Shown piece by piece: positions 47,331 to 55,844 of a stretch of 64,000 bases of DNA (the first letter of the stretch is position 1; each line of letters starts with the position of its first letter). The notes beneath the pieces are model-generated. The model ran no database searches. It was given only the letters and a program-made list of their open reading frames with translations, and was not told the DNA's origin. The DNA is from Octopus vulgaris (lineage: Eukaryota), in the NCBI GenBank assembly GCA_951406725.2, contig OX597827.1:23250001-23314000 (forward strand). The letters are read 5' to 3'. Position numbers and translations under genes: made by a program.

Positions 47331-48547
47331 TATATATAAATTCATACATATCGTCAGCAACACTTCTCTTTCTCGTCTTTCGTATCATCGCGATCAACAC
47401 CTTGAACATCATTACCACCATCATAATGCCGCTGCTGCTGCTGCTATAAATAATGATGATGAGGACGACGACGACGATGATGATTAAGACAAAAGAAAGA
47501 AGAAAAGAAGGAAGTGAACCGTAATTACGCAGCACAGTATGTGGAAGGAGTAGTTGGACGTTGGTATGTGCGTGTCATGCGAAGATATGTCGGGAAGGTG
47601 TGAATGAAATAAGTAGCAATATGGCTAAATATAAAGAAATATTAAAAGCTGTGGGTGGTGGTGGTAACGGCGGCGGCGAGGGGCGGGGGTTTGTCTTCGG
47701 CACAATGAACCGCGAGGTGTTTTAGTTCTTTAAAATCTAACATCTTTATCTTGAATGCTTTCAATCATATCTCTACTCCCCACTCTCCCATTTAACCCCC
47801 ACCACCACCGTTACCTATTGTTCACGTTCTAACCCCTCACTTCCCACCACTTGCCACTAATTTTCCTATTCTGATTATGTTCAACATTGAACACGAAATA
47901 TGATAGAAACCTGACCAATTTCTGACCAAGATGTCCTTCTCTTCCCCCTTAGTCACTCTTACTTATCAACGATCATGAGAATTAATACAACAATAGATCT
48001 TGTGATTGGTCTGTTAATGATACGATGTTTATCTCATGGAGACTCAGGGCAGAAACAGTTCTGCGTCACATACAGCTTTCTCACTCAACAACTGTTTCTG
48101 CTGTTTCTCCGATTCTACGGAGCTTATGCTCCCCTCTCAATGCACTCCACAGCATCGCGGTTTAGCCATTCGATCTACAAGAAACAACAGTTAAATCATT
48201 TTCAATGGCATCCTACTGTCATAAACAGGGAAGAATGTTTAAGGTGTATATATATAATAGAAGTAAATATATGGCACAACGAAGTATATGTACACCTTCC
48301 CGACATATCTTCGCATGACACGCACATACCAACGTCCAACTACTCCTTCCACATATATATATATATATACTATTGGATTCTACACATAAACTATTGGAAT
48401 CTTATATATATATCATTCTGCTATAAAAAAAAATGGATCTACAAATGCAATATCCCTACACATCTCACATCTATTTTCATTCCTCTACCCCACTCTCTAT
48501 TTTGTATCTTATCTAAATTAACTATTATTTAACCATCCTCTCACACC

Positions 48548-48595
48548 GTCTCCGATGAAGGGATATAATAAATATCCTGGAAACAGCTGTAAGGC
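48548..48595 (+). ncRNA. minimal hammerhead-like ribozyme (U4C variant)
   Basis: GTCT-CCGATGA-aGGGATAT-aataa-ATATCCTg-GAAA-CAGCTG-TA-AGGC; palindromic stem III. Confidence 0.65.
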
Positions 48596-49244
48596 CTTCT
48601 GTCTATAAATGTTCTAAAATCTACACACTCTTGATTTTTTTTTATCTCATTACGAAAAAAAAATATTTATATATATATATATATATAACTCCAAGAAAGT
48701 TAGGGGTTGTGGGTCCAACCCACTAAGGGATAATATCTATCCAATATACTGTTGGTATAATACCCAATTATTAATACACAAGTGTTTTTAGTGCATTGCA
48801 ATTAACTTACCTAGTGTATTAAATGGGTGAAGGTAAAGAGATATTTTGCCATTAATTTATATTGCAAATAAGAAAACGGAGGAGCACAATAGTTGGTTCA
48901 TCAACCTTAAGACATTAATAACTGTATGGTATATTGATATACTGATATTGATTGTAAAATTAATATACTTATATCTTTCATAAACATCTGTTTATATATT
49001 ATATTATATTCTATATTTCATATACTATGTATTGTTAAAAAGCATAATACACATAATCTAATATTAATATTATTAATAATAATAATAATAATAGTAATAA
49101 CTAAATATTGTATATGTACCTGTGGATGTGAATGTGTACGTATATTTCAGTATATATAATTAATTATGTATAACCATGTATGTATGTATAACCATATATA
49201 TATATCTATATATATATATATCTATATCTATATCTATATATCTA

Positions 49245-49341
<97 letters not shown>

Positions 49342-49410
49342 CTCTCTCAATATATATATTCAAATGTGTGTATTTTGTTTTATATTTATATTTATTATGA
49401 TTGCACTTTA

Positions 49411-49545
49411 TAATCTCTGACGAGGCCTAGATATATATATATATATACAAGTACCTCATTTTCAACTGCCTATTACCTCAATTCACTTGACTAATATAGG
49501 CAAAATGAGATGCTTTTATCTATGGGCTGAAACAGCTGTAAGTTA
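49411..49545 (+). ncRNA. hammerhead-like ribozyme with ~105-nt stem II
   Basis: CTGACGA (49417-49423), GGCCTAGATA...TATCTATGGGCT, GAAA (49529-49532), CAGCTG, TA. Confidence 0.65.
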
Positions 49546-49737
49546 TTTTAATAATTTATATTCATGTATTTTAATAATTACTTGTATTCTTATTTTATAT
49601 GCATAGAATAAAATGCTATATGCATGTATGTTATTATAATTATCAGTTTAATAAATAAGTTAAAAAACAAAAGACGAAGACAGGTGGTGTACAAAACAAA
49701 CAGATGTATTAGTATAGCGCTCAGGAATAGAAAAAGT

Positions 49738-49774
49738 CTTTTACGTTTCGAGCCTACGCTCTTCTACAGAAAGG
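49738..49774 (-). ncRNA. minimal hammerhead-like motif (core variant)
   Basis: Minus strand CTTT-CTGTAGA-a-GAGC-gtag-GCTC-GAAA-CG-TA-AAAG. Confidence 0.5.
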
Positions 49775-50276
49775 TACACAGAAAAAACAAGGAGAAAAAC
49801 AAGGAGAGAAAAAAGAGAGAAAAAAAGAGAAAAAAATATGTATATATATATATATATACAAATTGAGATAGGGGTTGTAAATGCAACCCTCTATGGGATA
49901 ACGTATATCCAATATACTGCTAGTGAAGTACCCAACAAAGTTAATACATAAATGTTAATGATTGCGATGCAATCAATTCATTTACTGTATTATATGGGCA
50001 AAGGTAAAATGATTTACCACAAATTACTAATACAAGATAAGAAAATGGAGAAATACATCTAAATCAAATATCAATTACCAGATAATACTCAATAATATAC
50101 TTTATTAAACCACCACATAAGAGACTGTAGGGTTAAATATAAAAAGCAGAACAAATCAGTGTACATAAAGGAATGTACATAAAAAAGTGCACATAAAAGA
50201 GTAATGTTGTATAATAATTAGAATATATATAAAAAAGAATATAAATACAAGTAAATATAAATATAAGTATAAATTA

Positions 50277-50377
50277 GATCTTACAGCTGTTTCGGCCATG
50301 TCGATAATTATATGGTTGGTCAATATATAGATATAAATGAGACATTAACAAAAATATCACAAGCCCTCTTCGGAGAT
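50277..50377 (-). ncRNA. hammerhead-like ribozyme with extended stem II (U4C), inside repeat 49860-50390(-)
   Basis: Minus strand ATCT-CCGAAGA-GGGC...GGCC-GAAA-CAGCTG-TA-AGAT; paralog of 54724-54833. Confidence 0.6.
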
Positions 50378-50753
50378 TATGTAATATAACACAGTCTACA
50401 CATATACCCACATATGTAATATAACACAGCCTACACATATACGCGTGAATGCGTATGGCTTAGTGGTTAGAATAGGCAATTCACGATCTTACGATCATGA
50501 GTTCGATTTCCGGTTGCGTGTTGAGTCCTTGGGCGCGTTGCTCCAATTCACTCAGCTGGTAAATATGAGTTGTACATGTAATTGGAAGGGGCCAATCTTG
50601 TCACATTCTGTGTCACGCTCAATCTTGCTAAGAACTGCGTTAAGACTATGCATGTCTGTGGAGTACTCAGCCACTTGCACGTTAGTTTCACGGATCAACT
50701 GGAACCCTCGTCGTCGTAATCGACAGATGGCCAATCAATCAATGAACCAATCA

Positions 50754-50788
<35 letters not shown>

Positions 50789-53480: not shown

Positions 53481-53535
53481 AAGCCTTTTCTTTATTTATT
53501 TACAATGTGCATTTTCGTTGATTTTTCTTATTTCC

Positions 53536-53590
<55 letters not shown>

Positions 53591-53700
53591 ATCCAAACAT
53601 GAAAACACAAAGAGAAAACACAACACGAGGACGTGGAACAAGTATAGGATTATTGGACGCTCAGGAAAGAAGGAAAGAAGGAGGGTATAACGAAGGAGGG

Positions 53701-53736
53701 TATAACGTTTCGAGCGGAGCTCTTCGTCAGAAACAT
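53701..53736 (-). ncRNA. minimal hammerhead-like ribozyme in repeat 53585-53805(-)
   Basis: Minus strand CTGACGA-a-GAGC-tcc-GCTC-GAAA-CGT-TA; palindromic AACGTT stem III; stem I weak. Confidence 0.65.
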
Positions 53737-54310
53737 TGGAAAAGGAAAAATCCAAAGAAGGGAAGACGGAGGAAAAAAATCGCCAACGGTACACACGCGG
53801 TCACATATATATATATATATATCTAATGTAGGCTAAAATGTTTCGAAAGATATTCTATCAATGGCCAGCATATTAAAAAATACCTTTAAAGGTTAAATTT
53901 ATTAAAAAAATTATAAGTAAGGGCAAAAGGAAAAAATTTCTAATGCTAAAATATGCCGAAAATAGACACAACGTCAATAACCATGTAATTTATCACTACT
54001 AGCACGCGTTTCGAAGAAAGCCGATAGAAATTTCTTTAAAAATCTCGTTATTCTCATATCGGACCCGATATGCAGCCCATTGATAGAATATTTTTCGAAA
54101 AATTTTATCCTACATTAGATGTTAATTTAATAATTTTCACTTCCAGACTCTCTCACTTTACGAGAGTTTTTAGTTCGAATCGCACGTGTCTCGAGATGGG
54201 CTAGAGAGTTTCTATTTTGAATATATTTGGTGTACTTAGTTGTGCTCATGACTTAGTGTTCGCTTCTTCCATGGGTATAAGTGAGTATTTCACTTATTTC
54301 TTTGCCGCAT

Positions 54311-54371
54311 TTATCACTGATGAAGGGAAGGTTCTTATGAACTAACTCTGAAATCGGGTCCGATATGGTAA
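54311..54371 (+). ncRNA. complete type I hammerhead ribozyme
   Basis: Stem I TTATCA/TGGTAA; CTGATGA; stem II AGGG..GGTTC-ttat-GAACT..CTCT; GAAA; stem III ATCG(G)/(C)CGAT; triplet AUA. Confidence 0.8.
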
Positions 54372-54501
54372 TAACGGGATTTTTTAGAAATTTCTGTCGG
54401 CTTTCTTCAAAATGCGTGCTTGTAGTGATAAATTACATGGTTATTGACGTTGTCTATTTTCGGCATATTTTGGCCTTAGAAATTTTTTCCTTTTGCCCTT
54501 A

Positions 54502-54559
<58 letters not shown>

Positions 54560-54723
54560 AAATGAGAAAATGGAGAAATATATCTAAATCAATCATCAAC
54601 CATCTGATAATACCCAATCAATACTTTATTAAACCATTACACAATAGCAATGATATTATACATTAATATAGTACAAATATAACAAGACATAGAAATAGAA
54701 ATAGAAATACATTTACATTGTAG

Positions 54724-54833
54724 CTGACAGCTGTTTCGGCCGTGAAGACAGGTATGTCCCATTTAACCTATTAGCCATATAAAGCAGGTATAAATGAGAC
54801 ATTAACAAGAATATCTCACGGCCTCTTCAGAGA
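54724..54833 (-). ncRNA. hammerhead ribozyme with extended stem II and consensus core
   Basis: Minus strand CT-CTGAAGA-GGCCGTGA...TCACGGCC-GAAA-CAGCTG-TC-AG; perfect 8-bp stem II base; GUC triplet. Confidence 0.75.
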
Positions 54834-55844
54834 ATTTAATGCAAGTATGAAAAAAATTTACATATAAATATGTGTGCATACACACTCATATTCTTACATA
54901 TATATATATACACAATAATACAATATAAACAATATAGATCAATATACATCAACAAACACAATAATGTTCCATATTGAACTCCACAGTTCCATAACCAACA
55001 CCAAGGAACCACAACATGTACACTCACACTCAAAGCAGGCATATATATTGAACAGTCCAATACATTAAAATGTGTCATTACACAAAAAGTCAATAAAATT
55101 AATATTAATATTAATAACACCACGACTGTACCATCCATTGCCAGCGGACATCCACATATATACGCAATCAGTCGACTCATTTTATATATATATATATATA
55201 TATATATTTAAATATGAAAAATTAATTTATTAGGTCTTTATTATATGTGCTTATATATTTATTTATAGAGAATATTTAGATCTTAATTATATATTTATAT
55301 ACATTTATATATTTTCATTGATATTTTATATTTTAATAATATGAATAATCATTTTTTTTGTAAAATATTTATGTAATTAGATATTGACTCTTACTGATAT
55401 TAGATTATTGGTGGGTTTCTTACCTTAAAAATTTATACTGAAGTTCCATTGTCGTTATCTTGTAGCAGTTTTCTCTTTATGTCAGGCTCCATCCTTCTTG
55501 TGTGCTGCATAAATATACTTTAACCACGACAACTTTGGAGTGGTGAAATCGGATCACTGTTAATGCTTTCCTGGTCCTTCTAAGTTCTTTAATTCACTTG
55601 GCTACCCAATTATTTTGAAGCTGTATTTTATAATTTAGGTGAGTTGCGTATTTAAACATAAAGGCGCTGGAGTGACTGTGTGGTAAGTAGTTTGCATACC
55701 AACCACATGGTTCCGGGTTCAGTCCCATTTGCGGCACCTTGGGTAAGTGTCTACTGCTATAGCCTCGGGTCGACCAATGCCTTGTGAGTGGATTTGGTAG
55801 ACGGAAACTGAAAGAAGCCCGTCGTATATATATATATATATATA

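Follow-up and report, generated by a model that had tools for sequence, protein, structure and literature searches.

What accounts for eight motifs resembling hammerhead ribozymes within 6.3 kb is the question raised by a stretch of 64,000 nucleotides from Octopus vulgaris (contig OX597827.1, positions 23,250,001 to 23,314,000), which is here called the window and numbered from its first letter. The original prediction, made from the letters alone, described the motifs between 48540 and 54840 as a hotspot, in which several unrelated and non-autonomous families of Penelope-like elements (PLEs) or retrozyme-like sequences had inserted into each other's (TA)n flanks, with read-through transcripts cut into defined RNAs and copies sharing a palindrome pairing as dimers. 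From the sequence comparisons presented here, it is very probable that each of the eight motifs is the end, shaped like a type I hammerhead, of a separate insertion from a genome-wide PLE family, and improbable that the cluster acts as a functional unit. Every motif is one copy of a family dispersed through the genome, with hundreds to more than 20,000 copies per family, and the families, lettered A to F, are arranged as follows.

48372 to 48667, + strand: 5'-truncated 3' end of family E, holding core 48552
48552, + strand: family E motif, H17 48591, with C4 core, A.G at the base of stem II and stem III ACAGCUGU
48668 to 48687: (TA)n tract common to the E and F insertions
48688 to 48918, - strand: family F 3' terminus in inverted orientation, forming the 5' arm of the insertion with motif 49417
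48926 to 49660, + strand: direct arm of family F, ending abruptly at 49660
49417, + strand: family F motif, H17 49540, with canonical core, 105-nt stem II insert and stem III ACAGCUGU
49661 to 49840, - strand: 3' end of family C1, core 49769, H17 49742, with A6U and minimal stem III ACGU
49841 to 49858: (TA)n tract common to the C1 and A insertions
49859 to 50385, - strand: older copy of family A with a longer 3' end, core 50373 (C4), H17 50282
53319 to 53538, + strand: 3' end of family D, holding core 53347
53347, + strand: family D motif, H17 53374, with A3-U8, 7-bp stem I, weak stem II and stem III ACCAUGGU
53539 to 53586: (TA)n tract common to the D and C2 insertions
53587 to 53803, - strand: short element (~215 nt) of family C2, holding core 53730
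53730, - strand: family C2 motif, H17 53704, with canonical core, stem III ACGU and a stem I broken in the window copy
53806 to 53821: (TA)n tract common to the C2 and B insertions
53822 to 54069, - strand: inverted arm of family B, unit positions 231 back to 465, matching the direct arm at 90-92%
54068 to 54503, + strand: direct arm of family B with a complete type I hammerhead, core 54317, H17 54365
54504 to 54557: (TA)n tract common to the B and A insertions
54558 to 55182, - strand: young, 5'-truncated 3' end of family A, holding core 54830
54830, - strand: family A motif, H17 54726, with canonical core, 86-nt stem II and stem III ACAGCUGU

All eight motifs were found within a few bases of where they had been predicted, on both strands. 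Stem III is a perfect palindrome in seven of them, as had also been described, with three different words (ACAGCUGU in four motifs, ACGU in two and ACCAUGGU in one), while that of 54317 is imperfect and capable of forming a hairpin. The CUGANGA core attributed to all of them is present in four (49417, 53730, 54317 and 54830), whereas the others carry C4 (48552 and 50373), U6 (49769) or A3-U8 (53347), so that core positions 3 and 8 hold C-G in seven motifs and A-U in one. Each of these non-canonical states is a family trait. The elements form two groups, 48370-50385 and 53319-55182, in which they stand end to end against (TA)n, and each of the five (TA)n tracts listed is flanked by two different elements, as serial insertion at (TA)n predicts. 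The elements are nested only in the sense of lying against (TA)n, since none sits within the body of another and the junction at 49660 has no (TA)n. The likely reason for the pile-up is that (TA)n is the target of PLE endonucleases (ENs) and flanks each new insertion on either side. Throughout the window, (TA)n, (CA)n and (TATG)n repeats are abundant, and inspection by eye gave no convincing exon near the cluster. Among sequencing runs recorded as RNA, none was listed as containing the stretch, and contigs from three runs guessed to be RNA and one other gave, against 47600-48240, a single 171-nt contig and no joints, from which no conclusion on expression is drawn. Between the two groups, at 50440-50740 and 50927-51001, tRNA-like repeats of the short interspersed element type were observed, with an Rfam tRNA match of 22.5 bits (below threshold) and no tRNA reported by ARAGORN.

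The proposed PLE origin was borne out by genes for reverse transcriptase (RT) and GIY-YIG EN upstream of the motif in families A and D, and for EN in C1. Three window families are in this way tied to PLE genes, of Hydra type in A and of Neptune/Nematis type in D and C1. The first look, with 40 candidates scored each time for families A, B, D, E and F, gave 818 candidates for 54830 (A), 2019 for 54317 (B), 696 for 53347 (D), 3292 for 48552 (E) and 1189 for 49417 (F). An upstream walk from one family A copy led to a GIY-YIG-like frame, and the EN-anchored set consisted of this starting locus together with 20 of 150 scored matches, picked for high identity or long frames. The motif lies 2.1-2.8 kb 3' of the EN frame in all 21 loci, with U4 in 18 cores and C4 in 3, and with GAAA and the ACAGCUGU palindrome throughout. 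Proximally, stem I of family A is just 2 bp long, and its distal helix beats shuffles (p<=0.05) in 3 of 17 arm pairs. The family A frame, of 950-960 aa overall and open over 955-960 aa in L107 and L108, was not recognised by Pfam and was read by its motifs, namely RWR (RWK-like), DKT, a CxCX5C linker, no CCHH, CxxC and CxH near the C-terminus, and a C-terminal EN. A second motif upstream, giving a pair of pseudo-long terminal repeats (pLTRs), is present in L101, L107 and L114, with 5554-5798 bp between the two predicted cuts. The upstream predicted cut of L107 is followed after 513 nt by the start of the frame, and the ~375 nt that follow the downstream predicted cut repeat the 5' leader and stop at a TA running into (TA)n; the insertion therefore ends within the leader, past the predicted cut. 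The 50373 element matches the 3' ends and pLTRs of the EN-anchored loci at 77-87%, and the 54830 element has 14 other copies that are 100% identical, 9 of them in one duplicated block. A family A copy was also seen within a larger block duplicated at 8 or more places with 96-99% identity (L007-L015). An EN next to L006 was considered as family A's own and rejected, as it belongs to a neighbouring element.

The backbones are less unrelated than had been claimed. Judged from pieces that are 70-88% identical, 49417 (F), 50373 and 54830 form one lineage, 48552 (E) is probably a relative of it, and 49769 and 53730 are alike in stems and layout. Stem II measures 73-105 nt in the A lineage. The segment 48688-49660 is a single F insertion made of an inverted 3' end and a direct arm. 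In a comparison with 11 other copies, its inverted terminus matches, in inverted orientation, the 3' ends of L237, L239 and L242 at 94-95%, and it is 73% like 49866-50050, the long 3' end of 50373; inverted arms were likewise found in copies of A, B, D and E. The 40 scored candidates of family E fall at 89-100%, with C4 in 14 of 20 copies and U4 in 6, and its copies share a fixed 3' end at (TA)n. No RT or EN frame turned up in the 1.5-kb flanks of 20 E loci or 12 F loci. The description as non-autonomous fits the coding-free unit of 54317, whereas 54830 and 50373, 53347 and 49769 belong to elements truncated to the 3' end, from families that bear RT or EN.

A single pattern covering 49769 and 53730 gave 23,606 exact matches vs none for the reversed control. 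Among the first 100 matches listed, 86 are C1-type and 14 are C2-type by hand count. Position 6 in these C1-type copies is U in 80, A in 4 and C in 2, with all four bases occurring at N7, and 13 of the 14 C2-type copies have A6. Since U6 dominates in C1, the seemingly damaged core of 49769 is the family state. In L109, L247 and L044, C1 lies 3' of a GIY-YIG EN (EN only) whose linker is CX4CX2C, and no RT or EN frame was found for C2 in 1.5-kb flanks.

The motif of family D lies 160-215 nt 3' of a frame with RT and GIY-YIG, both seen upstream of it in L082 and L088 (Pfam PF01541, E 3e-5), where the RT piece was not recognised by Pfam. A family D pattern in which any base was allowed at positions 3, 7 and 8 gave 295 matches vs 2 in the control. 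According to the full listings (31 non-A3 matches and 11 A3 matches without U8), these comprise 253 A3-U8 by subtraction, 21 G3-C8, 3 G3-U8, 1 U3-A8 and 17 mismatches, so that 275 of the 295 are Watson-Crick at 3-8 and none is C3-G8. The 21 G3-C8 matches are probably one amplified subfamily and hence one event, and the lone U3-A8 row was set aside as support, as it looks unrelated to family D. Among 30 protein-anchored loci, 24 were readable, 23 with A3-U8 and 1 with A3-A8, while 3 had the core deleted and 3 were without the motif. Pairs were counted by anchoring on 22 of these loci, after exclusion of the 3 without motif, 4 with deletions in the motif and 1 with a changed cleavage triplet; a MAFFT alignment of 35 D motifs, in which the variable stem III threw the stem I after it out of register, was not used for the counts. 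Stem I covaries, with A-U in 14 and G-C in 6 of the 22 at pair 1, and G-C in 13 and A-U in 6 at pair 3, and a perfect stem III palindrome occurs in 12, in four different words. In an unrooted tree of 34 rows, four of five G3-C8 copies are grouped, with weak support (82/75), amid A3-U8 copies. Several further family D sequences were observed: copies with short deletions restricted to the hammerhead (L255, L265, L267 and L276), a second window insertion at 30916-31800 with an inverted arm, a broken EN and a core at 31571 with A3-G8 (a state found in 5 of the 295 matches, this core among them), and, at 61700-62230, a broken PLE RT end with GIY-YIG that is 39% identical to family D.

Other families extend this series. 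A sister PLE (47% EN identity) combines U3-A8 with an identical palindrome, ACCGGU, and with a 7-bp stem I that is fully paired and entirely different, and U3-A8 hammerheads of at least three kinds were met (L084, L204, L213 and L109:1040-1092), one of them 3' of a PLE EN. An unrelated G3-C8 family from the background stretches gave 6712 exact matches vs 1 in the control; G3-C8 occurs in 92 of the first 100 listed and C3-G8 in none. It is short, with a 7-bp stem I, an AAUAUU palindrome and inverted arms (L057), and no gene was found in 10 of its loci; an EN next to L016 was rejected as its gene, as it belongs to a neighbouring element. Family D keeps a Watson-Crick 3-8 pair, as A-U or G-C, and the likely reason is selection for the active fold among its master elements. 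Przybilski and Hammann are said to have found in 2007 that any Watson-Crick 3-8 pair works in some contexts. The pair is part of the active conformation (PMC3884650), and C3-G8 has been described as an exchangeable tertiary Watson-Crick pair with U3-A8 as its natural covariation (Perreault et al. 2011, PMC3088659). No report of a natural A3-U8 or G3-C8 hammerhead was found in the literature searched, although supplementary tables may list such cores. That the A3-U8 motif of family D is a working ribozyme can be suggested tentatively. The same caution applies to a broader proposal, according to which all four 3-8 pairs occur in one genome, U3-A8, A3-U8 and G3-C8 of them within one PLE lineage, A3-U8 is selected and works as a dimer, the hammerhead consensus is too narrow, and family B arises from PLE copying of circular ribozyme RNA.

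Motif 54317 of family B is the only complete hammerhead of the eight, with stems of 6, 4 and 5 bp, and the sole exact match to our strict type I descriptor in the whole window. The family B unit is a non-coding sequence of 478 nt (GC 34%) that is circularly permuted, the downstream sequence returning into the upstream sequence, as seen in 20 loci, of which L021 is the window copy and L022 and L025 come from a single insertion, as its two arms. In 6 of the 20 loci the direct arm is longer than one unit, and in 13 there is an inverted arm. The 3' ends fall at unit positions 145-159 in 14 loci and at 229-240 in 4, both UA-rich, and 11 of the 13 inverted arms begin at the same two sites (159-165 or 228-240). 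Two complete motifs in direct tandem occur only in L028; there is a single one in the window copy. The circular fold of the unit reaches -128.7 kcal/mol vs -97.3 +/- 4.4 in 30 shuffles (z -7.2). No RT or EN frame was found in the 1.5-kb flanks of family B loci. By its ends and arms, family B is a retrozyme-like unit with a PLE insertion footprint, and its template may have been a circular RNA.

In regard to the mechanism, the hammerheads likely cut the RNA of the parent element into units. The motif bounds the repeating unit, which measures 5.55-5.8 kb cut to cut in A and 478 nt in B. Cleavage, through a dimer joined by the palindromic stem III or by the monomer in the case of B, would free the unit, which could then be circularised or read as a multimer. 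Reverse transcription, with nicked (TA)n as its primer, would begin at the UA-rich sites that lie downstream of the cut, a chemistry read back from the observed ends. Because it would start past the cut, every copy would carry an intact motif, and priming from both strands could produce the inverted arms. Most copies are 5'-truncated and coding-free; the local copies would be passengers without joint function. A motif has its natural dimer partner in the second pLTR of its own element or in a further copy.

How the cluster relates to the rest of the genome was judged from 75 stretches of 10 kb (750 kb) at round coordinates on 27 contigs, with window neighbours and element-anchored stretches excluded. 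They contain 20 strict canonical motifs in 12 stretches (shuffles: 0, 0 and 0) and 39 loose ones (shuffles: 5, 5 and 3). Seven of the 20 strict motifs come from one array, a near-identical 353-359-bp tandem repeat at L041:2300-4600 with canonical hammerheads head to head, five on the + and two on the - strand. The canonical density of ~27-46 per Mb would extrapolate to 75,000-130,000 motifs in the 2.80-Gb assembly of 227 contigs. Together with homologues of the window motifs, the background holds 63, or 0.53 per 6.3 kb vs 8 locally, a background count that is too low in that the G3-C8 and U3-A8 families are left out and the probes detect the window's eight by construction. The maximum per 6.3 kb is 0 in 36 stretches, 1 in 26, 2 in 8, 3 in 3, 4 in 1 and 7 in 1 (the array). 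The high local density that had been noticed is therefore real, which leaves the question of what it signifies.

It could be argued that the motifs are chance look-alikes in AT-rich repeat DNA. An Rfam scan of the region at E<=10 returned no hammerhead in all 101 rows, that of the window none among the 150 of 292 rows listed, with microsatellite-driven miRNA matches; loose descriptors yield many false matches (40 of 72 expected); and five of the eight motifs have no fold better than shuffles at z < -1.5 (49417 reaches -2.7). On the other hand, the strict descriptor matched 48540-54840 once with an exact core and three times with one core mismatch vs 0 in 100 dinucleotide shuffles. The loose descriptor gave 3 matches vs a shuffle mean of 0.01, and with a core mismatch 8 vs 0.37 (max 2), 2 of the 8 being spurious and the true motifs 53347 and 54830 being missed. 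The motif density thus exceeds that of shuffled sequence, the motifs occupy a PLE-typical place and unrelated stems are perfectly paired across families. Covariation and position at the family level already refute a chance origin, to which we leave next to no probability. A functional hotspot, with insertions beyond the TA density, read-through transcripts cut into defined RNAs and cross-family dimers, is favoured by the lack of any background stretch with at least 5 mixed-family motifs in 6.3 kb (0 of 75), by Poisson tails for eight motifs of 1e-7 per length and 2e-5 per TA tract, and by the ACAGCUGU palindrome common to four motifs (-11.1 kcal/mol). However, the stretch was chosen as extreme, and ~4 such groups would be expected genome-wide from the TA-tract rate, more with overdispersion. 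After window copies and 11 duplicate loci were dropped, family C is 1.58x denser near other insertions (16 in 346 kb vs 22 in 750 kb, p 0.11) and no denser per TA tract, with 0.030 copies there vs 0.027 in the background, and the motifs are abundant genome-wide. The dimers named in the prediction (48552 with 49417, and 50373 with 54830) would have a proximal stem I of 2-3 bp in each direction and one C4 core per pair, cross-partner stem I over all pairs of the four ACAGCUGU motifs has just 2-4 bp, and the elements differ in age and are broken. A functional hotspot is hence improbable; the cluster is best described as an extreme tail with no hotspot effect found beyond TA density, and a local extra factor is possible.

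A closer competitor accepts the same PLE origin and supposes that the hammerhead no longer cuts in most families, being kept as a dimerisation or RT signal or by hitch-hiking, with the swaps as relics. This alternative keeps a real, if lesser, probability. Several observations weigh against the main reading. About 20,000 C1 copies (extrapolated) carry A6U, and since C1 was amplified in this state, spread does not need a canonical core. Five of the 22 parsed EN-anchored D copies, all of one branch, have UAAA for GAAA and so lost G12, and stem II is just 1-2 bp in the window's own D subfamily. The hammerhead fold of all eight motifs as monomers lies 2-10 kcal/mol above the lowest-energy fold, and families E, F and C2 have no direct gene link. 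In one published construct, the G3-C8 swap alone rescued activity and A3-U8 did not (PMC9901934), and eight of nine predicted Xenopus retrozyme dimers showed no cleavage (10.64898/2026.07.22.740005). More-than-unit B insertions could equally come from tandem genomic copies without a circle, and the TA density of the cluster (14 tracts in 6.5 kb, twice the background) predicts ~1 motif vs 8. Against lost cleavage stands the 3-8 pair: it belongs to the active conformation, yet the amplified families show only Watson-Crick combinations there (C-G, G-C, U-A and A-U), and the free position N7 varies while the remaining core holds. As a separate observation, the UAAA branch (L270, L271 and L273-L275) has a covaried stem I.

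Viewed against known systems, PLE-borne hammerheads are a known kind, and the A3-U8 core of family D is an unusual variant. Cervera and De la Pena described PLE hammerheads in 2014 (PMC4209133), including the palindrome in stem III, their weak activity as dimers and a variant with U3-A8. The octopus motifs resemble these metazoan pLTR hammerheads in type I order, palindromic stem III, an extra base after A9 and a short stem I, and the elements in having many families per genome, mostly as single truncated copies, with inverted pairs on opposite strands. In contrast to the U3-A8 core covariant given there, the octopus adds A3-U8, G3-C8 and a fixed A6U family, with a stem II of up to 105 nt in the A lineage and an estimated number of canonical motifs far above the 2,000-9,000 of that paper. 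Likewise, U3-A8 is the sole natural case in the consulted text of PMC3088659 and PMC9901934, whereas in the octopus A3-U8 and G3-C8 each predominate in amplified families. The PLE clades, inverted arms and (TA)n targets were treated by Craig et al. 2021 (PMC8557442). Family A agrees with their Hydra clade in all the frame marks given above, in the hammerhead and in the (TA)n target, a clade call made by frame marks; it departs from that clade ("generally <3 kb") in its unit length, Asn-rich inserts and a 3' untranslated region of 2-3 kb. The Neptune/Nematis marks (CX2-5CxxC linker, CCHH and C-terminal EN) are found in the D and C1 frames, which share with those clades the CX4CX2C linker, two cysteines inside GIY-YIG and downstream histidines and differ from them in their non-canonical cores; without references the two clades are inseparable.

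Non-LTR (long terminal repeat) retrozymes of metazoans, for which mobilisation by PLEs has been proposed (PMC7229834, and for vertebrates Li, Clavereau and Pollet 2026, 10.64898/2026.07.22.740005), resemble family B in being non-coding, in GC content, in the type I hammerhead, in a strongly structured unit and in head-to-tail read-through. Family B is unlike them in its 478-nt unit, its mostly dispersed sub-dimer copies and its PLE-type inverted arms in (TA)n, insertion-site evidence of a kind that the consulted text of both papers lacks. The consulted part of the latter paper makes no mention of octopus, cephalopod or mollusc. No paper on cephalopod hammerheads was found in the literature searched, although the tables of Craig (S1-S2), Cervera (S2-S7) and Li may list octopus PLEs; Eckert 2023 (PMC10085705) treats, in the text consulted, hammerheads of permuted form, which is another subject.

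Taken by itself, the cluster amounts to an accumulation of ordinary retroelement ends; its value lies in the natural series that it samples, with sister families differing at the 3-8 pair, A6, U4 and G12 in thousands of copies each. With this series, it can be tested whether the spread of PLEs depends on cleavage by their hammerheads or whether these are parasitic or structural. If A3-U8 is active, the hammerhead consensus for genome searches widens; standard descriptors would then miss such families, and hammerhead counts and the core consensus would be too narrow. Family B contributes insertion-site evidence, in the form of UA-site priming past the cut, inverted arms and more-than-unit copies, for the proposed mobilisation of retrozymes by PLEs, here in a genome of mollusc type. 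The canonical motif density is above the per-genome counts in the text of the papers compared.

Several minor features were also recorded. Further hammerhead-like relics lie in the window at 6814 (+) and 26659-26956 (-), one with a CAGCUG palindrome and one an old C2 copy, and a PLE EN of another type at L196:911-1500 is followed, 40 nt after its frame, by a canonical hammerhead with a GCGC palindrome. An exon-like frame with a WD40 repeat at 10200-10450 (+) presumably resembles SMU1. At 43630-45650, a 33-bp tandem array of 61 copies is open in several frames (up to 695 aa), and at 41865-42387 (-) a fragment of a mariner-like transposase was recognised by eye. An abundant dispersed repeat of ~160 bp occupies 55660-55824 and recurs at 1109, 1596, 14242, 18867, 28026, 28638, 29197 and 56727.

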